From assembly GCA_031370785.1 (NCBI GenBank), contig JANMQY010000044.1:1-19823 (forward strand): DNA of 19,823 nt, written 5' to 3'. This stretch comes from Candidatus Eiseniibacteriota bacterium. GTDB taxonomy: Bacteria > Eisenbacteria > RBG-16-71-46. Shown here piece by piece: positions 3,768-19,585 of this stretch (its first letter is position 1; every line of letters starts with the position of its first letter). Under the pieces are notes generated by a model. It searched no databases. It was not told the origin of the DNA and saw nothing but the letters and a program-made list of their open reading frames with translations. The position numbers and the translations under genes were made by a program.

Positions 3768-4451
3768 ATGGCTCGAGCGCCGCATGCTGGAATCCGCCGC
3801 CGCCCCTCGCGCGCCTGGGGCCGTCCGCTGCCGCGTGCGTTCTTCGCCCGCCCGCCGCTGCGGGTCGCGGCCGCGCTGCTCGGGCGCGTGCTGGTGCTGG
3901 AACGCGGCTCCACGCTGCTCGCCGGGCGGATCGTCGAGGTCGAGGCCTACCTGGGCGCCGCCGATCCGGCCAGCCACGCGTTTCGCGGACGCACCGCGCG
4001 CAACGCGGTGATGTTCGGACCGGCCGGGCACGCCTACATCTACTTCACCTATGGCATGCACTACTGCCTGAACGTGGTGACCGGGCCTAAGGGACGCGCC
4101 TCGGCGGTGCTGCTGCGCGCGCTCGAACCGCTGGCCGGCCTCGGCGCGATGCGCAGGAGGCGCGGCATCGTCCCGATCGAGGCGCTTGCGCGCGGGCCGG
4201 GCAATCTGGCGCGCGCGCTGGGCCTGACGCGGGCGGAGAACGGTTGGGATCTCACACGCGGACCGCTATGGATCTCGGACCTTCCCGCGGACCGCGGGAA
4301 ACTCCGGATCGTGCGCGGGCCACGGATCGGGATCCGCCTCGCCGCGGACCGGCCGTGGCGCCTGCGGCTCGACGGCCATGCCTCGGTTTCCGGCGAGCGA
4401 TCCACGCGCGCCAGGTCACGATCGATGAGTTCCTCGTTGACACGCTCGTGA
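3768..4451 (+). CDS. DNA-3-methyladenine glycosylase (MPG/AAG family); start uncertain
   Basis: GRIVEVEAY, SHAFRGRTARNAVMFGPAGHAYIYFTYGMHYCLNVV, AVLLRALEP, GPGNL, PRIGI. The first in-frame ATG after the PMM stop is at 3768; the ORF-track start at 3576 overlaps PMM. Confidence 0.92.
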   Translation: MARAPHAGIRRRPSRAWGRPLPRAFFARPPLRVAAALLGRVLVLERGSTLLAGRIVEVEAYLGAADPASHAFRGRTARNAVMFGPAGHAYIYFTYGMHYCLNVVTGPKGRASAVLLRALEPLAGLGAMRRRRGIVPIEALARGPGNLARALGLTRAENGWDLTRGPLWISDLPADRGKLRIVRGPRIGIRLAADRPWRLRLDGHASVSGERSTRARSRSMSSSLTRS

Positions 4452-4465
4452 CCCGTTCCTAGTAT
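4437..4465 (+). promoter_or_regulatory. Sigma70-type promoter for the envelope locus, overlapping the glycosylase 3' end
   Basis: TTGACA (4437-4442), 17 nt, TAGTAT (4460-4465): perfect -35, optimal spacing and TAnnnT -10, ~125 nt upstream of ATG 4590. Confidence 0.75.
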
Positions 4466-4589: not shown

Positions 4590-6218
4590 ATGAGCCCTTC
4601 GCGCAGGGTTCTTCTGAGCGCGCTTTCGATCATATCCGCATTCAGCCTGTCGGCCGCCGCTGTGGCCTCGGGACAAACCATGGACGACACGCGCCGCTCG
4701 TTGGGCCTCGCGCCGGATCCGATCGCGCGTAGCCCGCGACTGCTTGGCATGGGCGGGGTCTCGCTGACGGTCGACGATCCGCACAACCGGATCAACCTGT
4801 GGGACTTTGCCGCCTTCCCGACGGGAGTCGTGGATGCCGACTCCAACTCGGTGATCGAGCTGCGACCGGCCACGGCCAGCGCTTCGTCGGTGCACGATCT
4901 GTCCGGCCTCGAGCGAGGACGCGAGCGCCAGGATCTGGCGCTGCGCGAGAACCGGTTCGGCTTCGAGATCTGGCGACGCAGCGGAATGACCACCTTCGGC
5001 GCGGTCGGTGATCTCGACGGCCTGCGCCACGACGAGCCGTACAGTGACGACACCGAGCATCGCCGCCGCCTGAGCCAGCCGAACATCGTGCCGCTCGTCG
5101 CCGGCCGGCTGCCTTACACGACTTCGGGAAACTCCCGCTTCGCGCTGCGCGTGCACTACCGCACCGAGACCGTGAGCGAGAAGTACCTCACCATCGTCGA
5201 GAACGGGGCCGGACAATATCTCGACCTGCACGGCGAGACATTGAATCCTCCGGACTTCTTCACCCCGGATGAAACTCGCACTTCTTCGCTCGGCGCGGGG
5301 CTGGCGATCTCGCACCGCGTCGCCTCGTGGCTGACGGTTGGCGTGGGAGTGGACGAGATCGCGAATCGGATTCGCGGTGGAAACCATGGCATCAAGTACG
5401 ACTCGCAGATCGACGAGGATCGTGACGTGACCAGCGGACAGGCGACCCTGATCGGGCGCATCGGGCCACACTTCGAGTGGGGTGCCGACGGCCGCGGATG
5501 GAGCTCGACTTCGGAGCAGCACTGGGCGTTCTCGCTCTCGGCAGGTCCGGCCGCCAACGCGGTCGACGGGCGGGGAAAGCTGGACGAGCGCGAGGAGAAA
5601 GGAAACTCGTTGAACACGCGCGCGCGCCTGACGCTGGGCCCGCTCCAGCTGGGCGCAGCGTTCGGCAGCTTCGACCGGAAGATCACGCTCACGCCTCCGG
5701 ATCCGAGCGATCCGACCTCGCTCAATCAATTCCTGCGCAACGTCTACAGTCGCCCGAGCGGAGACACGCTCAACCTGCCCGACAGCGTGAGCTACAACCA
5801 GATCACGACCCATTCATGGAACGCGGGCGGTGGAGTGGGACTCCGCATGGGCACGCATGCCCGATGGGCGGCCGAGTACCACGTCACCCGCGATCGCGAA
5901 GAGATGTTCGTGACCGGAGGGACCGGACCCGAGCGGCGTGCGTGGGATGTGCGCAGCGGACTGGAATGGAAGCTCAATCCGGTGCTCATGGGTCGGGTCG
6001 GCTACCAGTACGCCTGGCTCGACCGCGACCTCAAGATCCAGCAGAACGAGAGCAAGGGAAACAGCATGACGCTCGGGCTGGGACTTCGCCCGGACCGTGC
6101 CGCGTGGTCGTTCGACGCGGGGTATCTGATCCACTGGTCGCAGGCCGACTACGGCAGCCCGTGGAAGCCGCGCGGGAGTCGCCAGCTGCTCTCGAGCCAG
6201 GTGCGATGGGACTTCTAG
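4590..6218 (+). CDS. Uncharacterised outer-membrane beta-barrel protein (PorV/FadL-like N-terminal motif)
   Basis: SD AAGGAG (4579-4584); signal peptide MSPSRRVLLSALSIISAFSLSAAAVA; SPRLLGMGGVSLTVDD motif; many alternating amphipathic strands (WDVRSGLEWKL, LMGRVGYQYAW, WSFDAGYLIHW); C-terminal aromatic BAM-type end QVRWDF. Confidence 0.8.
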   Translation: MSPSRRVLLSALSIISAFSLSAAAVASGQTMDDTRRSLGLAPDPIARSPRLLGMGGVSLTVDDPHNRINLWDFAAFPTGVVDADSNSVIELRPATASASSVHDLSGLERGRERQDLALRENRFGFEIWRRSGMTTFGAVGDLDGLRHDEPYSDDTEHRRRLSQPNIVPLVAGRLPYTTSGNSRFALRVHYRTETVSEKYLTIVENGAGQYLDLHGETLNPPDFFTPDETRTSSLGAGLAISHRVASWLTVGVGVDEIANRIRGGNHGIKYDSQIDEDRDVTSGQATLIGRIGPHFEWGADGRGWSSTSEQHWAFSLSAGPAANAVDGRGKLDEREEKGNSLNTRARLTLGPLQLGAAFGSFDRKITLTPPDPSDPTSLNQFLRNVYSRPSGDTLNLPDSVSYNQITTHSWNAGGGVGLRMGTHARWAAEYHVTRDREEMFVTGGTGPERRAWDVRSGLEWKLNPVLMGRVGYQYAWLDRDLKIQQNESKGNSMTLGLGLRPDRAAWSFDAGYLIHWSQADYGSPWKPRGSRQLLSSQVRWDF

Positions 6219-6242
6219 CCGGGGCGGATCGCAAAAACATCC

Positions 6243-6272
6243 TTGACACAAACGGGCAATGCGCAGCATATT
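6243..6272 (+). promoter_or_regulatory. Candidate sigma70 promoter (distal) upstream of the TBDR
   Basis: TTGACA (6243-6248), 18 nt, CATATT (6267-6272), in a locally AT-richer intergenic stretch. Confidence 0.5.
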
Positions 6273-6465
6273 TCCTTTCGATTGGGCGTACGGCACCTCC
6301 GCGAGCGACCGGCTTGCTGGACCTTCCTCCATGTGCCCGGTTCTCACGCCCGCGAATCCACTCCATACCTGACGGCAATGACTGGGTCGCGCACAGCATG
6401 CGCGGGCGGACGGTTTTGCTTTCACTAACTCTTCTGTGCAAAACGAGTTGAGGTCGGGAAAAGCG

Positions 6466-6494
6466 TTGACACTCCGATGCGAGATTGGCATCGT
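6466..6494 (+). promoter_or_regulatory. Candidate sigma70 promoter (proximal) upstream of the TBDR
   Basis: TTGACA (6466-6471), 17 nt, CATCGT (6489-6494), with extended -10 TG at 6486-6487. Confidence 0.45.
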
Positions 6495-6554
6495 GATCCG
6501 GTCCATTTTCGCAGCGGCCCGAACGATCGAACCCAAGGCGAGGGGTTGAGTCGC

Positions 6555-9290
6555 ATGTCCATTAACAGCAGGGGTTTGGTGATCGCCGCACTGATCGCGG
6601 CTCTCGGATCACTTCTGGTGACTCCCTCGAGCGCGCAGCAATCGGCCCCCGCGGCCCCCGCGGGCGGGACCGGCCGGATCACCGGCAAGGTGACCGAAGG
6701 CAAGGAGCCGGTTCCGTACGCGAACGTCGTCGTGCTCGGCTCGAGACAGGGGACGATGGCCGATGAAAACGGCGTGTTCGTCATCCCCGGCGTTCCGGTC
6801 GGCACGGTTCAGGTCTCCGCGGAGCAGGCCGGCTTCAACAAGTCGGTTCAGTCGATCCAGGTGAACGCAGGGCAGACGGCCACCGCGAACTTCTCGCTCA
6901 CGCCGAAGATCACCAAGAGCTTCGAAGAGATCGTGGTCACCGCCGAGAAGCGCATCGACACCAAGTCCTCGACCACCAAGCAGACCATCAGCGCCGAGAA
7001 GCTGCGCGAGATTCCGGTCGACAACCTTTCGCAGGCAATCGCGGTCAAGGCCGGCATCGTCGCCCAGGGCGGCGAGCTTCATTTCCGCGGCGGACGCGGG
7101 GGCGAGGTCAAGTTCCAGTTCGACGGCGTCGAGGTTTCCGATCCGCTGTTCGGGCGCAACGCCGGTATCGCCAACCTCGCGGTCGCCGGCACCGAAGTGC
7201 TCTCGGGCGGATTCGACGCCGAGTACGGCAACGCGCTTTCGGGAGTGGTCAGCGTGAGCACGAAGGAAGGCACGGAGCGCTTCGGTGGCGAGGTCCGCTG
7301 GGACACCGATCGCTACGGCGATCCGACCAAGACCTTCGACAACTACGACCGGTTCACGTTCGGCTTCGGCGGCCCGACGCCCATCAAGAACCTGACCTAC
7401 TTCGCCACCTACGAGGGCAGCTTTGCCGACACCTACCTGCGCTCGGCCATGACCAAGCCGAACCGCACGCTGCTGGATTTCATCCAGCTCGGCAACCGGC
7501 AGAGCAACCAGATCAACACCAACTTCAAGCTGGCCTACCGGGTGAATTCGAAGAACAAGCTCACCTTCGAGACCGTCAACAACCACACCATCAACACCCC
7601 GTACAACCACATGTGGAGCCGCAAGGGCTTCGTGCAGGTGTCGTACGACACGGTGCACACCCCGGGTCAGCCCGATCGCTACAACCCGCGCTACGGAACC
7701 TGGTCGGCGACCAGCACCGATTCCACCTTCGTGCCGATGAACATGGCGGACCACGTCCCGACCATCGACGACCGCTATCAACAGTTCACCATGGTCTGGA
7801 CCAACCAGCTCTCGGACAAGAGCGTGATCACGACCCGCATCGCAGACTTCGTCTTCAATACCCGCGCCTCGATCGGTCGCAAGCAGCCGTGGGAGTACGA
7901 CACCCAGAGCCCGCAGTATTGGAACGGCAACGTCGTGTTCGGAACCGAGAACAATCCGTACTACGCGACCCACGGCGACTACCCGACCTACTCGCAGGTG
8001 ACCGCGGCGACCTACACGCTCAAGAGTGATTTCTCGACGCGCAAGTGGAAGCAGCACACGGTCAAGACCGGGATCGAAGCCAAGTACAACCGGGTCCAGA
8101 ACCTGAACCTGGTGCTGCCCAACTCGGAGACCAATGGCCTCCCGGGAGGGGCGCGCTCCGACTTCACGAACTTCAATCCGGAGGGCGCGGCCTACATTCA
8201 GGACCGGTGGGAGTTCGAAGGACTGGTGCTCAACGCCGGTGTGCGCTACGACCTGTTCACGCCCGGGCTCCAGATCGCGGATGCGGACCTGGCGAGCGGC
8301 AAGCGCTACAAGGAACAGTTCAGCCCGCGCCTCGGCATCGCCTATCCGATCTCGGACAAGGACGTGCTGTCGTTCCACTACGGGTGGACCTATCAGACCC
8401 CGGCCCGCAACTTCATCTTCCAGAACCGCGCGGTCAACACCAGCGTCGCGGTGCGTGGCAATCCCGACCTCGAGCCCGAGACCAACATCGCGTACCAGGC
8501 TGGCGTCCAGCACCTGTTCTCGCGCGACGTGTCGGGTCAGTTCTCGGTGTTCTTCAAGGACATCTACGGGCTGATCACCTCGCGTCAGGATCGCGACGCC
8601 TTCGGCAATCTGATCAACGTGTACTTCAATGGCGACTACGCCAGCTCGCGCGGCTTCGAGGCCAGCGTGACCAAGAGCTTCAGCCACAAGTTCTCGGCGG
8701 AAGTGAACTACACCTACTCGCTGGCGACGGGCGTCGCCTCGGATCCGAACCAGGCGCTGCAGTTCTCGCAGGGCGGCCGGCTCTACCTGCCGATCTCCGA
8801 GCGCGCGCTCAACTGGGATCAGCGCCACACCCTGACGCTGCAGACGGTGGTGCGCGATCCGGGCAAGTGGGGATTCCGCACGCTGTGGACCTACGGCTCG
8901 GGCTTCCCGTTCACACCCGCATTCCGCAACGATCGCAAGCCGGATCCTGCGCTCGAGAACTCGCGCCGTCTGCCTTCCGAGGCGCGGCTCACCATCGACG
9001 GCGACAAGTTCTACAAGATCTGGGGACAGAACGTGACGCTGTTCTTCGATGCGCGGAACGTACTCAACTCGAAGAACATCTCGGGCCTCAGCCAGAACCT
9101 GTTCCCGAACCCGTTCGTGAATACGGCGGGCGACGACTACACGATCTATTACACCGAGACCGGCCGCGCCGGTGGCGCCTACCTGCAGGACATCAACGGC
9201 GACAACCAGCCCGACTGGATCCCGGTACAGGATCCGCGCGTGTTCGAAGAGGGTCGTAATGTGCGCATGGGCGTGAGTGTCACCTTCTAG
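6555..9290 (+). CDS. TonB-dependent receptor with N-terminal CarboxypepD_reg-like domain (~911 aa)
   Basis: SD GAGGGG (6540-6545) before ATG 6555; signal peptide ending PSSA; GRITGKVTEGKEPVPYANVVVLG...GVPVG domain; TonB-box-like EEIVVTAEK; plug motifs LHFRGGRGGE and SGGFDAEYGNALSGVVSVSTKEG; barrel motifs LNAGVRYD, FSPRLGIAYPI, GNPDLEPE, NYTYS; ends RMGVSVTF. Confidence 0.93.
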   Translation: MSINSRGLVIAALIAALGSLLVTPSSAQQSAPAAPAGGTGRITGKVTEGKEPVPYANVVVLGSRQGTMADENGVFVIPGVPVGTVQVSAEQAGFNKSVQSIQVNAGQTATANFSLTPKITKSFEEIVVTAEKRIDTKSSTTKQTISAEKLREIPVDNLSQAIAVKAGIVAQGGELHFRGGRGGEVKFQFDGVEVSDPLFGRNAGIANLAVAGTEVLSGGFDAEYGNALSGVVSVSTKEGTERFGGEVRWDTDRYGDPTKTFDNYDRFTFGFGGPTPIKNLTYFATYEGSFADTYLRSAMTKPNRTLLDFIQLGNRQSNQINTNFKLAYRVNSKNKLTFETVNNHTINTPYNHMWSRKGFVQVSYDTVHTPGQPDRYNPRYGTWSATSTDSTFVPMNMADHVPTIDDRYQQFTMVWTNQLSDKSVITTRIADFVFNTRASIGRKQPWEYDTQSPQYWNGNVVFGTENNPYYATHGDYPTYSQVTAATYTLKSDFSTRKWKQHTVKTGIEAKYNRVQNLNLVLPNSETNGLPGGARSDFTNFNPEGAAYIQDRWEFEGLVLNAGVRYDLFTPGLQIADADLASGKRYKEQFSPRLGIAYPISDKDVLSFHYGWTYQTPARNFIFQNRAVNTSVAVRGNPDLEPETNIAYQAGVQHLFSRDVSGQFSVFFKDIYGLITSRQDRDAFGNLINVYFNGDYASSRGFEASVTKSFSHKFSAEVNYTYSLATGVASDPNQALQFSQGGRLYLPISERALNWDQRHTLTLQTVVRDPGKWGFRTLWTYGSGFPFTPAFRNDRKPDPALENSRRLPSEARLTIDGDKFYKIWGQNVTLFFDARNVLNSKNISGLSQNLFPNPFVNTAGDDYTIYYTETGRAGGAYLQDINGDNQPDWIPVQDPRVFEEGRNVRMGVSVTF

Positions 9291-9312
9291 CCGACCGGGC
9301 CAGCGAGGGAGC

Positions 9313-12252
9313 ATGAGACCAGCGATGAACAGGATGGCATGGCGGAGTGCCCTGGCGGGGCTCGCGCTGATGGCTACCTTCGCATCGGGCGCGAGCGCCG
9401 ACGAGGAGTTCGGAACTCTGGCCGGGCGCAAGCCCGACATCGACGGCTGGAGTGACGCCCAGATCCGTGCGGCCTACCCCGAGTACTACCCGACCAGTGC
9501 CAACGGGCGCATCCGGCCGGCCGCGATTCCCGACATCTTCGGCCACGGCGCAGTGCTGACCGTCGGCAACATCTACATGAAGGTCACGAACTACGGTCTG
9601 CTAGGAAACCCGTTCACCAACATCTCCAGCGATCCCTCCGGCCAATGGCCGGGATCCTCGGGTGTCGAGTACATGAATGCGATTGCGTTCGCGGTCGCCG
9701 CGGTGAATCCGGCCGCGACCGATCCCGCCGGCGTTCGCCGCGTCAGCTACTTCCGCGAGTGGCGCCCACCGAGCCTCGACGATGTGGACCGGATGTACCC
9801 GGCCTACGATGGCTTCGTGAACGGTGCTCGGTTCGTCAACGACGACGGCGATTTCGATCCGGTCTACGGCGAATCGCGGGTCGATGAGGATTTCCACGAC
9901 GGCCGCGACAACGACGGCGACGGAAAGATCGACGAGGATTTCGCCGCGATCGGACAGTCGGAGTTCACTTGCGTGATCCGGGACGACACGCGCGAGGCGC
10001 TCAACGCCACCTTCAACGAGAAGCACATTCCGCTTGGTCTGGAATGCCAGCAGTCCGCGTGGGCCTACTCGATCCCGGGTTTCACCGACTTCAACGTCGT
10101 CGAGTTCCATATCACCAACGTCTCGGGACACACGCTGGACAGTCTGATGATCGGCTGGCTGGTGGACATGGACTGCGGTCCGGTCTCGAAGAACGACTAC
10201 TTCACGGATGATCTCGATCTGCCGGGATACCCGAGCGGCGAGTTCACCTATCCGCTGCCGCCGACCGATACGCGCCGGCAGGTCACGCACGACGTCACGC
10301 AGACCGGCATCCCCCAGGGCACGCCACTGTGCACCGAGCTGAAGCTGCGCGTGAACGGATTCTCGGTCGCGGATGACGATGGCGACGAGGGCCGGACCAG
10401 CGGCATTCCCTCGTTCCTGCTCATCAACTACGCGCCGCTCGACTTCCAGGGCGGTCAGGCGCCCAACCGCGTCCAGTTCCACTCGTTCCGCTCGTACGCG
10501 GGCGGGACGCCGTATTCGAGCGGTGGCGGACCGACCATCGATCAGGAGCGGTTCGAGTTCATGGCCGGTGGCGAGAACGTCGATCCCGCGACCGGGTTCA
10601 TCACCGCCGAGCCGAACGACAGCAAGGGCGACTACGTCGCCTGGTGCTCGGTGGGCCCCTGGCGCAACGTCGCGAACGGCAAGTCGGTCGATGCGACGAT
10701 CGCGTTAGGTGTGAGACAGGGCAACCTCGTTCGCGCGCTCGGGTACCGCACCGAATATCAGGTGTACCAGCAGAACGGGGCGCTTCCCGCGGAGCTGACC
10801 GAGCTCCGGCGGAACTACAAGTCGCTCGACAACGCGCTGTCCGCGCAGATCGCCTTCGAAGGGGTGTGGGAGCGGGGCGCTGGCGCGAAGGAGCTGTTTA
10901 CCAACGGCCACGGACGCGAGACCGCGATCCGTCTCGAGCGCGGGTCGCCCGATCAGAGCATTCCCGAAGGCTGCGAGGGCCGCGATCGGATCGTCACGGT
11001 GAACAACCGTGAGTTCTCGTGGTTCGATTTCGACTGCGACTACTGCACCGGTGTCTATGACTTCACGAACCAGCTCGGACTCTTCCACAAGACCTGGAAC
11101 GCCGAGTCGCCGCCGCCCAGTCCCAACACCAACGTTTCGGTGAAGTACAACTACACTGACAATCCCGATCGCAAGGTGGCAGCGGGGGGAGACCACAAGA
11201 TCGTGATCGCGTGGGACAACCTCTCCGAAATCACCCAGGATCCGAAGTCGCTGTGGTACGACGCGCGCGGCTACAAGGTATGGAAGGTGGCCAACTGGAC
11301 GCGGCCGGTCGGCTCCCCGGGGCCGAACGAGGACGACTGGTCGCTGCTCGGCGAATTCCGTCTGTTCGATTACCTCGACACCAACAATCAGCCGATTCTC
11401 GACAATCGATACGTTCGCGCGCCCGGTGACACGGTGTGTCCGCAGGTCTACATCCCGAACTGGAAGGATCCCGCGACCGGGATCGTCGGCCCGGCCACCG
11501 TTCCCATCTGCCTCAACCGCGGCGACCTGTGGGACCGTCAGAGCGGTCAGATCATCCGTCCCGACACCGCGATCAAGTGCGTGGGCTATCCGGATTGCGA
11601 GACGGCGACCGGCTGCCAGCTGGGCGTCGCACCAGCCTGCCGGCCCGTCACCCGTATTCGCTATCCGGTCGGCCACTATCAGTACGTCGACACCGAGGTG
11701 AAGAACGGCTTCCTGTACTTCTACTCGGTGACCGCCTTCGACTCGACCGGCGATCCCCGGGTCGGCACCAAGGCCGAACTGAACGGACGGCGCACCGCGG
11801 TGGAAACCGAGGGCGTGACGCCGCAGGTCGCAACCAAGACCGGAAAGAATGTCTGGGTGGTGCCCAATCCGTACCGGGGTTACGCGCAGATCAGCCAGCG
11901 TCCCTCGTCGTGGGACTTGACGCCGAATGCCTCCGATCCCACGGGAACGCACATCGACTTCCTGGGCATGCCGCCGGGGAGATGGACGCTCAAGGTATTC
12001 ACGGTGGCGGGAGATCTGGTGCAGGTGATCCGCTCGGACGATCCGGTGAACGAGTCGCTGCGAACTCCGGTGACCGACGACAACGGAGTCACGCGCCCCG
12101 GATTCAATCGTCAGCAGGATTCGGCGAACGACGGACAGGCGCGCTGGAATCTCATCACGAGAAGCGGGCAGGACGTGGTGAGCGGCATCTATCTGTTCAC
12201 GGTGGATTCGTCTCAGGGGACGCAGCGCGGTCGCTTCGTCATCATCCGCTAG
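9313..12252 (+). CDS. Large exported protein with Asp-rich Ca-binding-like motifs, interrupted FN3-like domain and T9SS type-A/FlgD-Ig-like C-terminal domain (start 9313 or 9325)
   Basis: Signal peptide ...WRSALAGLALMATFASGASA|DEE; DNDGDGKIDED; FN3-like PPPSP...GDHKIVIAWDN...GYKVWK...YVDTEVKNGFLYFYSVTAFD; C-terminal VWVVPNPY...LKVFTVAGDLVQVI...WNLITRSGQDVVSGIYLFTV...GRFVIIR. Confidence 0.82.
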   Translation: MRPAMNRMAWRSALAGLALMATFASGASADEEFGTLAGRKPDIDGWSDAQIRAAYPEYYPTSANGRIRPAAIPDIFGHGAVLTVGNIYMKVTNYGLLGNPFTNISSDPSGQWPGSSGVEYMNAIAFAVAAVNPAATDPAGVRRVSYFREWRPPSLDDVDRMYPAYDGFVNGARFVNDDGDFDPVYGESRVDEDFHDGRDNDGDGKIDEDFAAIGQSEFTCVIRDDTREALNATFNEKHIPLGLECQQSAWAYSIPGFTDFNVVEFHITNVSGHTLDSLMIGWLVDMDCGPVSKNDYFTDDLDLPGYPSGEFTYPLPPTDTRRQVTHDVTQTGIPQGTPLCTELKLRVNGFSVADDDGDEGRTSGIPSFLLINYAPLDFQGGQAPNRVQFHSFRSYAGGTPYSSGGGPTIDQERFEFMAGGENVDPATGFITAEPNDSKGDYVAWCSVGPWRNVANGKSVDATIALGVRQGNLVRALGYRTEYQVYQQNGALPAELTELRRNYKSLDNALSAQIAFEGVWERGAGAKELFTNGHGRETAIRLERGSPDQSIPEGCEGRDRIVTVNNREFSWFDFDCDYCTGVYDFTNQLGLFHKTWNAESPPPSPNTNVSVKYNYTDNPDRKVAAGGDHKIVIAWDNLSEITQDPKSLWYDARGYKVWKVANWTRPVGSPGPNEDDWSLLGEFRLFDYLDTNNQPILDNRYVRAPGDTVCPQVYIPNWKDPATGIVGPATVPICLNRGDLWDRQSGQIIRPDTAIKCVGYPDCETATGCQLGVAPACRPVTRIRYPVGHYQYVDTEVKNGFLYFYSVTAFDSTGDPRVGTKAELNGRRTAVETEGVTPQVATKTGKNVWVVPNPYRGYAQISQRPSSWDLTPNASDPTGTHIDFLGMPPGRWTLKVFTVAGDLVQVIRSDDPVNESLRTPVTDDNGVTRPGFNRQQDSANDGQARWNLITRSGQDVVSGIYLFTVDSSQGTQRGRFVIIR

Positions 12253-12280
12253 TCGCGTTGAACACGAGGAGGAAGGCAAA

Positions 12281-13234
12281 GTGAGAAAGATCATCGCGGC
12301 TTGCGGTCTCATCGGGGTTCTGATCCCGAGCCTGGCCGGCGCTGCCGAGATTTTCGACAAGGTCGCCACATTCGACGGGCAGTTCCTCAAGATCGGCGTC
12401 GGTGCACGTGCCGCCGCGATGGGGGGCGCATTCGTCGGTGTCGCAGACGACGCGACAGCCCTGTACTGGAACGCCGCGGGAATCGCCCGCATCGATCCCG
12501 GCAAGTCCGAGCTCTCGATCAATCACGCCAACTGGCCGGCTGAGCTGTCGTTCGATCAGATCGGGTACGTGTTCCACCTCAAGCGGTTCCCCGGCGCCTT
12601 CGGCGTCTCGGCCCGCGCGCTTTCGATGGACCCGATGGTCGAGACCACGGCGTACCAGCCCGACCCGAACGTCGGAACCGGCCGCACCTTCGACGCCGGA
12701 ATGATGGCCGTCGGGGTGACCTACGCGCGCTCCTTCACCGACAAGTTCAGCGCCGGGCTGACCGCAAACATGATTCACGAGGGGCTCGCCGATCTGTCGC
12801 AGCAGAGCTTCGCCTTCGACATCGGCACGCTCTACGACGTCGGCACGCTGGGCATGAAGATCGGCATGGCGATCTCGAACATCGGCGGGCAGATGAAGTT
12901 CATCGAGCACGAGGCGCGCATTCCCGGCATCTTCCGGGTGGGCACGTCGGCCACGCTGCTCCAGGGCGCCGACCAGAAGCTGATCGGCTCGTTCGAGTTC
13001 TCGCACCCGCCGGACAACGCCGAGCGCCTGAATCTCGGCGGCGAGTACATGTTCCATCGCTTCGTGTTCCTGCGCGGTGGATACAACTTCAACTACGATA
13101 CCGAAGGCATCGCGGGCGGCATGGGCTTCCACTTCCCGGTGTCGATCGCCGGCCAGGCCGACGTCGACTACGCATACACCGACATGAAGGAGCTGGGTGG
13201 AGCGCACCGGTTCACGCTCAAGTTCCTGTTCTAA
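12281..13234 (+). CDS. PorV/PorQ-family (FadL-like) outer-membrane beta-barrel protein
   Basis: Strong SD AGGAGG before GTG; signal peptide; signature QFLKIGVGARAAAMGGAFVGVADDATALYWNAAGIA; FAFDIGTLY, LNLGGEY, LRGGY, DYAY; ends HRFTLKFLF. Confidence 0.88.
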   Translation: MRKIIAACGLIGVLIPSLAGAAEIFDKVATFDGQFLKIGVGARAAAMGGAFVGVADDATALYWNAAGIARIDPGKSELSINHANWPAELSFDQIGYVFHLKRFPGAFGVSARALSMDPMVETTAYQPDPNVGTGRTFDAGMMAVGVTYARSFTDKFSAGLTANMIHEGLADLSQQSFAFDIGTLYDVGTLGMKIGMAISNIGGQMKFIEHEARIPGIFRVGTSATLLQGADQKLIGSFEFSHPPDNAERLNLGGEYMFHRFVFLRGGYNFNYDTEGIAGGMGFHFPVSIAGQADVDYAYTDMKELGGAHRFTLKFLF

Positions 13235-13256
13235 GCCTTTGGTCGAGGGGACCTGG

Positions 13257-14750
13257 GTGATCGGTCGGCATCTCACGACGCGCTTCCCGCGGGGAGCGCG
13301 TCGCGCTTTCGTGGCGGTCTTGGCGCTGATTCTCGCCGCGACCTCGGCCGAGGCGGCTCGGGGCCCCGGCGAAGGGCCAGGTCCCTTGCCGTGGCGCATC
13401 AGCGGCCGGGTGAGCTTCACGGTGGACGCCGCCGCATTCCCGGACAGTGCCGGCCTTTCCCTCGACGTATACGTGCGCATTCCTCCGGCGACGCTGGCCG
13501 CGCTCGACCGCGATTCACTCGGAGTCGCCCGCCTCATGCTCACCACCCGTCTGCGCAGCGCATTCGGCGCGCGCCAGGCCGAGCGCCAGCAGATGCTCAC
13601 CATCGATCGTGCGGATACGCTCGCGGGCTTCGGCAAGGTGGTGGTGGTGCGCTACCCGACCCGATCCGGCGCCCAGCGGCTCACGGTAAAGCTCGAGGAC
13701 CTTCACTCGCGCAAACGCGGCATCGCCTACATGGGAAGGCAGGTGACGGAATCCGGGAGCGTGGACGGTGACTTCCAGGTCGCGAAGGCGCAGATGGAGC
13801 GCGAGCTCTCGGACATCGAGTTCGTGTGGAGTGTGGACACGCTCGGGATTTCCGAGGCCTTCCGCCACGGGGCGCGAAGCGTGCTGCCCAATCCGGAACG
13901 GCTCTACGGGCTCTACGCGGCCGATCTGCGCGCGGGTTTCCTCGCGCGTGCCCGCGCGGGGGACGATCGGGCATGGCACTGGGTCGCGCGGGTAGTGGAC
14001 TCTGGGGATCAGGTCCGGCTGGAGCACGAGGAGACCGCGCCGGCCTCGCGGACTCTTGATGGTGCGGTGGTCTTCGACGTCTCGACTCTCCCTGCCGGGG
14101 GGTACGACCTCGAGATCAAGGCATGGCAGGAGGGGGACGCGGGCGCGCTGCTCCGCCGCTCGCACTTCAGCATCGCGTGGCAGGCGGCCTCGTGGCTGGG
14201 CGATCCCAGGGATCTCGAGGATGTCGCGCACTTCCTGCTGAACGCCGACGCCGAAGAGGCCTTTGCGGCGTTTCAGCCCGGCGAGAAGGAGCGCTTTCTC
14301 GCGGACTTCTGGAAACGCCGCGATCCCACGCCCGAGACCGCGCACAACGAGGCGCTCGAGACCTTCCTGCAGCGTATCGACTACGCGAACCAGACCTACA
14401 GCCGGGTCGGAGTGGGCAAGGGCATGTTCTCCGACATGGGCCGGGTGTACATCCGCTATGGCGAGCCCGGCGAAGTGCTCCACCAGGTCATCCCCGCGGG
14501 TGACGAGACGCTCGAGCGCGTCATTCAGGACATCGCCGACACCGAGACTCGTCCGATCGGCGGCGTCGGCGCGCACGGGCTGGGCGGCGACACCCGGCCG
14601 TACGAGGTGTGGATCTACCAGGGCGACATCCCCCTGCCGCCCGACGCCGATCCCGACGCCGTGGCGCACGTGCGGCGGCAGCGCCTGGTGTTCCTGTTCG
14701 TCGACCAGCAGGGCTTCGGTCAGTACACGCTCCGCTACTCGACGGAGTAG
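13257..14750 (+). CDS. Exported GWxTD-domain protein (~497 aa, degenerate GMFSD signature)
   Basis: SD GAGGGG (13245-13250) before GTG 13257; signal peptide ...AFVAVLALILAATSAEA; VLPNPERLY; Ig-like LPAGGYDLEI; GWxTD domain FWKRRDPTPET..NE....F.QRIDYAN..Y.....GMFSDMGRVYIRYGEP, YEVWIY, FLFVD..G.G.Y.L. Confidence 0.85.
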   Translation: MIGRHLTTRFPRGARRAFVAVLALILAATSAEAARGPGEGPGPLPWRISGRVSFTVDAAAFPDSAGLSLDVYVRIPPATLAALDRDSLGVARLMLTTRLRSAFGARQAERQQMLTIDRADTLAGFGKVVVVRYPTRSGAQRLTVKLEDLHSRKRGIAYMGRQVTESGSVDGDFQVAKAQMERELSDIEFVWSVDTLGISEAFRHGARSVLPNPERLYGLYAADLRAGFLARARAGDDRAWHWVARVVDSGDQVRLEHEETAPASRTLDGAVVFDVSTLPAGGYDLEIKAWQEGDAGALLRRSHFSIAWQAASWLGDPRDLEDVAHFLLNADAEEAFAAFQPGEKERFLADFWKRRDPTPETAHNEALETFLQRIDYANQTYSRVGVGKGMFSDMGRVYIRYGEPGEVLHQVIPAGDETLERVIQDIADTETRPIGGVGAHGLGGDTRPYEVWIYQGDIPLPPDADPDAVAHVRRQRLVFLFVDQQGFGQYTLRYSTE

Positions 14751-19069: not shown

Positions 19070-19462
19070 ATGTACGCGTTCCTGATGGTCATTCATCTGC
19101 TGGTGTGCGTCTCCCTGGTCGCCGTGGTCCTGGTCCAGTCCGGCAAGGGCGGTGGGCTGGCCGGCGGGGCTTTCGGTGGCAGCGCGCAGACCGTCTTCGG
19201 CGGGCGTGGCGCCACCGATTTCATCACGCGCGCCACCATGATTCTCGGTGTGGCGTTCTTCCTCACGTCGCTGACGCTGGCGCTGCTCTCGACCAGCACC
19301 GGACAGTCGAAGAGCCTCATGCAGGAAGCCGCGCGCAAGGCCGCCGCCGGCGCTCCCGCGACCCTGCCCAGCAACACTCCGCCTGCCGGCCGCTCGACGA
19401 CGCCGCTCGTGCCGCCTCCCGCGACCGCACCGGCCCCGGCCAAGCCGGGCGGAGGCCCGTAG
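19070..19462 (+). CDS. secG: Preprotein translocase subunit SecG
   Basis: Two TM helices flanking LVQSGKGGGLAGGAFGGSAQTVFGGRGATDFITRAT; SD GGGGAG; conserved tpiA-secG-tRNA-Leu context. Confidence 0.95.
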   Translation: MYAFLMVIHLLVCVSLVAVVLVQSGKGGGLAGGAFGGSAQTVFGGRGATDFITRATMILGVAFFLTSLTLALLSTSTGQSKSLMQEAARKAAAGAPATLPSNTPPAGRSTTPLVPPPATAPAPAKPGGGP

Positions 19463-19500
19463 AACCCAAGTTTCGGCGGCGCGCCGCGCCGTGTGAGCGT

Positions 19501-19585
19501 GCCCGGGTGGTGGAATTGGTAGACACGCACGTTTGAGGGGCGTGTGGGGAAACCCATGCGAGTTCAAATCTCGCCCCGGGCACCA
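19501..19585 (+). tRNA. tRNA-Leu (anticodon GAG)
   Basis: Acceptor stem GCCCGGG/CCCGGGC + ACCA; D-arm GTGGAATTGGTAGACAC; anticodon stem CACGT/GCGTG with loop TT-GAG-GG (19535-19537); long variable arm TGGGGAAACCCA; T-arm GCGAG-TTCAAAT-CTCGC. Confidence 0.97.

Follow-up and report, generated by a model that had tools for sequence, protein, structure and literature searches.

A TonB-dependent receptor beside an exported protein and a PorV-family barrel

What does a TonB-dependent receptor (TBDR) do when its gene is followed at once by those for a large exported protein, here called the cargo, and a PorV-family barrel? This question is raised by a 19,823-nt stretch of Candidatus Eiseniibacteriota DNA (the window), a contig (C16) belonging to a 3.44-Mb genome of 68% GC that is rated 100% complete. 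In it, five open reading frames (ORFs), all on the + strand, lie between an mpg-like gene and pfk-gap-pgk (flank names from reading of the translations), and the closest relatives of the locus are mostly from Ca. Eisenbacteria. We found that TBDR, cargo and PorV-family barrel are the unit at this locus, a phylum-core combination of known parts, which may supply the receptor with a partner at the cell surface. The five genes are as follows:

4590-6218, +, FadL/PorV-superfamily beta-barrel of the outer membrane, 542 residues, ending WDF
6555-9290, +, TBDR, 911 residues, ending VTF, with a CarboxypepD_reg domain, a TonB-box-like segment, a plug and a barrel
9313-12252, +, cargo, 979 residues, without a Pfam match
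12281-13234, +, PorV/PorQ-family barrel, 317 residues, ending FLF
13257-14750, +, GWxTD-domain protein, 497 residues, with a GTG start at 13257

As judged from hydropathy and by eye, the N-termini of all five proteins combine a hydrophobic segment with an AxA-type site, and a lipobox cysteine is missing from each. Spacers of 22 nt (TBDR-cargo), 28 nt (cargo-PorV) and 22 nt (PorV-GWxTD) separate the last four genes, and one of 336 nt with two sigma70-type promoter-like sites separates the barrel from the TBDR. A preliminary description of this DNA had reported five co-oriented genes with signal-peptide-like starts, the three WDF, VTF and FLF ends, and tight spacing from the TBDR onwards, and all of this held. 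Its statement that SusD, CAZymes, SprA and PorU are missing was likewise upheld by profile searches of the five window proteins; SprA and PorU-like genes sit elsewhere in the genome. No hydrolase or regulator was found in the window locus.

The cargo ends in a PorU/PorZ-like domain and precedes a PorV paralogue

The cargo can be divided as follows:

~9562-10713, +, N-terminal domain that defines the family, ~380 residues, conserved, with an invariant acidic loop
between the N-terminal and Fn3-like domains, +, Cys-rich, variable middle
~11107-11769, +, Fn3-like domain, weakly indicated by a match to 3MPC (E 0.057)
11848-12249, +, C-terminal domain (CTD), matching PorU and PorZ

That the cargo bears a type IX secretion system (T9SS)-type CTD had been suggested from the start, and both its profile matches and the distribution of profile scores in the genome supported this. 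The best solved matches of the CTD profile were PorU (6ZA2, E 1.8e-4) and PorZ (5M11, E 0.0095). Among triplet-type CTDs, 24/24 matched the PorZ model, 16/24 the PorU model and 11/24, weakly, CHU_C. Against the type A model TIGR04183 the window CTD scored 19.8 bits, under the cut-off of 23, and 21 of 24 related CTDs matched at E ≤ 0.1; the type B model TIGR04131 matched none of the cargo CTDs. The CTD profile is matched by about 90 of the genome's ORFs, of which five score 61-145 bits and the others ≤43 bits; four of those five sit in TBDR/PorV triplets. In a CTD tree, a long branch (support 89/90, not starred) divides the triplet-type domains from generic ones. Cassette-B CTDs form a supported clade, and the CTDs of lone cargos cluster with that of the locus cargo from the same lineage. 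On this profile and tree evidence the tail of the cargo is a separate T9SS-CTD subtype, which most resembles the CTDs of PorZ and PorU, themselves uncleaved. The CTD of PorU stays on PorV and that of PorZ on PorQ (PMC10202324).

CTDs of the same type number two to five in 17 of 49 genomes. At some loci (L071, L074, L085, L086) a second cargo copy stands between PorV and GWxTD or 3' of GWxTD. The cargos of one paralogous locus type, C133, have a conserved tail of 8-10 residues past the CTD. Elsewhere in the genome (C129:37768-47966), a 361-residue protein with a triplet-type CTD lies 3' of a pair of large, lipoprotein-like genes and of a generic CTD protein; there is neither a TBDR nor a PorV here, and the three gave no Pfam match.

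At E ≤ 0.001 the cargo matches 955 protein clusters. Its N-terminal domain matched no PDB entry and no named Atlas cluster, and from Pfam just three families came up, each of them for a single member out of 44; its invariant acidic residues suggest calcium binding.

The barrel encoded downstream scored 194 bits against PorV_fam (cut-off 90), and its profile matched Flavobacterium johnsoniae PorV (6H3I, E 9e-29); the single sequence gave no match in PDB, so that PorV was found by profile search only. It reached 70 bits on the canonical PorV equivalog model, whose cut-off is 250, and 14 bits on the PorP model, whose cut-off is 91. The preliminary description had taken this barrel for a PorV paralogue, and that held; it is distinct from another PorV paralogue, which adjoins a PorU-like gene on contig C142. 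CTDs and PorV paralogues cluster partly by cassette type in their two trees: cassette-A and cassette-B PorVs are supported clades, and the copy on contig C126 pairs with that of Rhodothermus in both. The PorV-family barrel is a likely cognate anchor or shuttle of the cargo.

The triplet is conserved and, at one locus type, lost together

The TBDR matches Plug (PF07715) and TonB_dep_Rec (PF00593), both over cut-off, as well as CarboxypepD_reg and OMP_b-brl_4 in Pfam; the SusC/RagA model was absent from its NCBIfam matches at E ≤ 0.1. Its TonB-box-like segment is preserved in the alignment. With plug and barrel domains, this segment, and TonB and ExbBD in the genome, it has the features of a TonB-dependent transporter (TBDT).

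Across the phylum, the cargo family occurs in 71/71 genomes, a TBDR orthologue in 70/71 and a PorV orthologue in 67/71, as a single match in 63 of those 67. All five genes stand in order at 36 of the 63 loci where the cargo was found, most others being cut by contig ends. We also collected 40 loci around cargo hits: in 20, which cover 11 of the 12 other families, the five genes stand in order, another 3 are truncated, and 2 have TBDR and cargo only. Inside the family, the median identities of TBDR (75%), PorV (76%) and gap (72%) exceed those of cargo (55%), GWxTD (54%) and the fast-evolving barrel (41%); TBDR and PorV are as conserved there as GAPDH. The distant-family medians are 46%, 52%, 63%, 30% and 29% (five figures, for a list in the order TBDR, PorV, gap, cargo, GWxTD, barrel).

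The triplet also occurs at three further sites in the same genome, on contigs C126, C133 and C32, and thus at four unrelated sites in all. A homologous triplet, RMAR_RS14110-14120, is carried by the Rhodothermus marinus plasmid pRMAR01, and one shared profile matches the cargos of all in-genome triplets and of Rhodothermus. On C126 (19670-34445) the triplet lies beside a MalK ATPase, a CBM9-like protein and two PF10091 glucanase-like genes, which would make this a SusD-less utilisation locus. On C32, adenosine deaminase and RpiB adjoin. The plasmid triplet (L107:8638-21117) has an FG-GAP CTD protein on one side and amidase/serine-hydrolase genes on the other, amid CRISPR-Cas loci. On C133 (73083-84076), near mreB, the five parts are reordered as GWxTD, barrel, TBDR, cargo, PorV. 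Metagenome contigs with differing flanks carry the triplet followed by GWxTD, and one of these contigs encodes a protein identical to a Gemmatimonadales record.

Of 20 genomes compared at the C133-type GWxTD locus, 9 carry the triplet there (one contig-cut) and 11 lack it there as a block; without it, GWxTD is retained, and the barrel is retained in 4 of the 11. The conserved gene order on which the preliminary description had made its proposal depend is seen for TBDR-cargo-PorV, which at this locus type is present or lost as a block. The proposal of a five-gene system survived in part: the triplet is the unit and GWxTD falls in its predicted operon, but a promoter-like site of its own precedes the barrel, which in two families is split from the TBDR by two genes (TldD/PmbA-like, from reading of the translations). 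One obligate unit of five genes was rejected on these grounds for the barrel, and was weakened for GWxTD by its persistence without the triplet.

The host has SprA and TonB and no detectable SusD

The possibility that SprA is missing was rejected, as it lies over cut-off in this genome and was matched in 69 of 71 phylum genomes. Four Peptidase_C25 matches are present, one of them, PorU-like, beside a porV gene. GldK, GldL, GldM and GldN were not found in the complete genome, nor the GldM domain in any of 71 phylum genomes, in searches where no control genome exceeded the cut-off. The reduced T9SS suspected in the preliminary description is therefore contradicted by SprA and PorU and, within that limit of the controls, agrees with the Gld result. 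Since SprA is present without a recognisable Gld motor, the question arises of how the T9SS of this phylum is powered. The genome holds nine TonB_C matches and genes for ExbB and ExbD. One row of genes (C7:6353-16595) encodes a CTD protein, a fusion of a PorV-family barrel with FlgD-Ig, a 1071-residue TPR protein, ExbB, two ExbD and a TonB_C protein, on a contig with no TBDR match; this ExbB/ExbD/TonB cluster is a candidate for energising a T9SS without GldLM. SusD (PF07980) was matched in 0 of 71 phylum genomes, with a positive Bacteroides thetaiotaomicron control, so the missing SusD lipoprotein of the preliminary description extends to the phylum sample.

A proposed surface partner for the receptor, and the alternatives

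We lean, if slightly, towards a module in which an SprA-exported cargo, docked through its CTD on its own PorV-like barrel, acts as a non-lipoprotein capture partner of the TBDR and replaces SusD. Sec and then SprA would carry the cargo outside, where its CTD would be retained on the cognate barrel as PorZ is on PorQ and PorU on PorV. The N-terminal domain, to judge from gene context, would contact the TBDR and join in substrate capture. TonB, for which the box-like segment is observed, would power import through the TBDR, import being the job presumed for such a transporter. The observed parts of this proposal are the identities of its components, the CTD subtype, the conserved order, the block presence and absence of the triplet at a paralogous locus, SprA and the failure to find SusD. 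We favour it because SprA (69/71) coexists with a lack of SusD (0/71), because the CTD is nearest to PorU and PorZ, because the triplet is lost as a block and because the TBDR has a TonB-box-like segment. It is further favoured because the paralogous triplets adjoin MalK/glucanase-like, nucleoside and amidase genes, and because one PorV with several same-type cargos parallels the orphan type B substrates that share a shuttle. The core-genome status of the locus and its strong, regulator-free promoter-like sites suggest that the transporter serves something constantly needed, not an occasional polysaccharide.

Several observations weigh against a capture partner. The cargo N-terminal domain has no known homologue (PDB, Pfam, named clusters), so a lid role is argued from gene context only, and the domain occurs with generic CTDs too. 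At 15 of the 40 cargo loci the cargo is alone, without TBDR or PorV; the 14 extra TBDR copies comprise 4 with an adjoining cargo, 7 alone and 3 cut by contig ends, and two extra PorV copies are solitary. Cassette-A CTDs form no supported clade, and linkage alone suffices to explain the congruence of the CTD and PorV trees. The window locus has no hydrolase or inner-membrane importer. Finally, the housekeeping flanks prfB, pgm, gap and pgk are nearly as syntenic phylum-wide as the five genes, and because of this gene order at the window locus proves little by itself.

Alternatively, the cargo may be displayed on the PorV-like barrel but work independently of the TBDR, as an adhesin, an enzyme or part of a surface layer that is merely co-expressed. 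We consider this unlikely, though the likeliest of the rivals. The lone cargos (15/40), the 7 of 14 extra TBDR copies without a neighbouring cargo and the pairing of the N-terminal domain with generic CTDs all fit it, as does the faster divergence of the cargo (median 55%, against 75-76% for TBDR and PorV), and type B cargos anchored by PorP/SprF include adhesins (PMC9143113). However, in each of the four in-genome triplets and in that of Rhodothermus a cargo of one and the same family stands with a TBDR of one and the same subfamily, 4 duplicated TBDRs still have a cargo alongside, and the triplet disappears as a block.

Rather improbable, in our estimate, is a core envelope machine of Gld-less T9SS lineages, in which a TonB-energised barrel, a dedicated PorV paralogue and a periplasmic GWxTD adaptor would act as a single platform and export, load or swap interchangeable surface proteins, with one PorV to up to five same-type cargos in a genome. 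If true, it would couple type IX-type secretion to TonB power, and the GWxTD family would gain a first function.

To a rival in which the TBDR would serve export or assembly instead of import, TonB power acting through it to move or release the cargo to the surface, with PorV as acceptor and GWxTD as periplasmic adaptor, we give slightly less credence still. The TBDR has a core-gene distribution and housekeeping-level conservation, both unusual in a nutrient TBDR, and it matches OMP_b-brl_4; GldK/L/M/N were not found in the genome, nor the GldM domain in 71. A TBDT required in protein secretion has a precedent in Oar/PopC (PMC6434023). Against this, the Gld searches had no positive control over cut-off, the cargo bears a T9SS-type CTD in a genome with SprA, and the surroundings of the paralogous triplets point to nutrient use. 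Moreover, ~85 further CTD-like proteins are without a TBDR partner, which means that the general energy source of the T9SS must lie elsewhere, and the C7 cluster is a candidate for it.

Ancient synteny without joint function, to which the prfB, pgm, gap and pgk flanks of most families lend some weight, is very improbable given that the triplet recurs at four unrelated genome sites and on a Rhodothermus plasmid, that with GWxTD it stands between other flanks on contigs including the one with the Gemmatimonadales-identical protein, and that mpg, pfk and gap are variably present while TBDR-cargo-PorV stays unbroken.

Promoter-like sites, the FadL-like barrel and the GWxTD protein

A sigma70 consensus scan gave 3 sites where 1.3 ± 0.9 were expected; each lies on the + strand, and they precede the barrel, the TBDR and pfk. 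The sites and the adjoining leader element at the locus are:

4437-4465, +, sigma70-type promoter-like site 5' of the barrel gene, 10/12 consensus matches (consensus only)
6243-6272, +, P1, conserved promoter-like site 5' of the TBDR, from the scan and the spacer alignment
6292-6325, +, putative 6-bp leader stem 3' of P1, weakly supported and incompletely formed in the window's own copy
6466-6494, +, P2, conserved promoter-like site with a -35 hexamer, a 17-nt spacer and an extended -10

A pattern taken from the same alignment recovers P1 at 38 of 40 family-level loci, and P2 likewise at 38 of 40; P2 is the likely start of a TBDR-cargo-PorV-GWxTD transcript. Because promoter-like sites precede both barrel and TBDR, the four genes from the TBDR onwards are likely one predicted operon and the barrel a separate one. 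The region from P1 to the stem could be a leader RNA: 81% of stem cells are paired, against 76% in shuffled alignments, and the covariation score was equalled in 3 of 500 shuffles, a score that related sequences can attain without any structure. No riboswitch or other Rfam element was matched. An invariant four-base motif lies between P1 and the putative stem (6243-6325). Two metatranscriptome runs yielded one long contig of a relative, with depth flat across genes and spacers, and therefore cannot demonstrate transcription.

The profile of the 542-residue barrel matched Pseudomonas aeruginosa FadL (3DWO, E 1.3e-6) and TodX. Its alignment to PorV gave 97% probability in hhalign, and PorV_fam was weakly matched by 18 of 36 members of the barrel family; pairwise BLAST against PorV was not significant. 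This FadL-like barrel is likely a looser associate of the triplet with its own transcription. In several distant families (L086-L089, L094, L096, L098) an additional gene, mostly lipoprotein-like and absent from the window, stands 5' of the barrel.

The GWxTD protein scored 77 bits against TIGR04514 (cut-off 28), and its profile had no significant match in PDB. As it has a signal-peptide-like start and no CTD, it is likely a periplasmic, co-transcribed accessory. GWxTD genes were found in 41 of 41 phylum genomes. Of 80 metagenome loci retrieved with GWxTD, a query that favours the window type, 44 have PorV immediately 5'; most of the remaining loci begin near a contig edge, and 5 with at least 900 nt upstream lack PorV. 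The word "GWxTD" did not occur in the literature searched, mostly non-subscription papers.

Towards the ends of the window, the release factor 2-like ORF (1152-2384) is a single open frame. A programmed frameshift is usual in this gene. A tRNA-like sequence (19317-19557) apparently lies downstream of secG.

Relation to known systems

We found no published description of a TBDR-cargo-PorV module in a search that reached few subscription papers and no supplements. The accessible text of PMC12635249 and of bioRxiv 10.64898/2025.12.01.691665 does not describe it, nor does that of PMC13543919, where PorV and the T9SS go unmentioned; the combination is apparently undescribed. SusC/SusD pairs define nutrient capture in Bacteroidota, and it is a sister phylum that showed SusD in none of 71 genomes. 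If our favoured proposal is correct, a T9SS-delivered, barrel-anchored partner would be a second route to an assisted TonB transporter, and would bring with it a further class of CTD and shuttle and a large protein family without a known fold. Genetic modification has been achieved in a strain of R. marinus (PMC5822342). The module is directly testable because this cultured thermophile has both a homologous plasmid triplet and a genetically modified strain.

Among known systems, BamG of the Bacteroidota beta-barrel assembly machinery (BamG/BamH) is a FadL-family barrel conserved across the phyla of the Fibrobacterota-Chlorobiota-Bacteroidota group (PMC12611786), and the window's upstream barrel is FadL-like. 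However, the profile of that barrel returned FadL and TodX and no BamG chain from PDB (the presence of BamG in the copy used being unchecked), and no bamA match was noted in the window. Oar of Myxococcus xanthus resembles the TBDR as a TBDT with an export role (PMC6434023), but no PorV barrel or T9SS CTD is noted for the Oar system in the accessible part of that source.

In SusC/SusD (RagA/RagB) and BtuB/BtuG, as here, a TBDT with an N-terminal CarboxypepD_reg domain is followed by a gene for a large exported protein, and some paralogous loci are utilisation-like. The window locus differs in having no SusC model match, lipoprotein, TPR lid, hydrolase or regulator. Type B cargos with PorP/SprF (SprB-SprF, PG1035-PorP) share with it a shuttle gene immediately 3' of the cargo gene, and orphan type B cargos may share a single shuttle (PMC12618676; PMC9143113); here the barrel is of PorV_fam, the CTD does not match TIGR04131 and a TBDR is linked. 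The PorZ-PorQ and PorU-PorV pairs of the Porphyromonas gingivalis attachment complex likewise combine a CTD protein with a PorV/PorQ-family barrel, and theirs are the nearest CTDs, which are uncleaved (PMC10202324). In contrast, the body of the cargo is neither PorZ nor PorU, the porU-porV locus is separate and a TBDR is co-encoded. Judged by its sequences, the module thus falls outside each of these systems, and would resemble SusC/SusD in its proposed role and PorZ-PorQ or type B/PorP in its anchoring.

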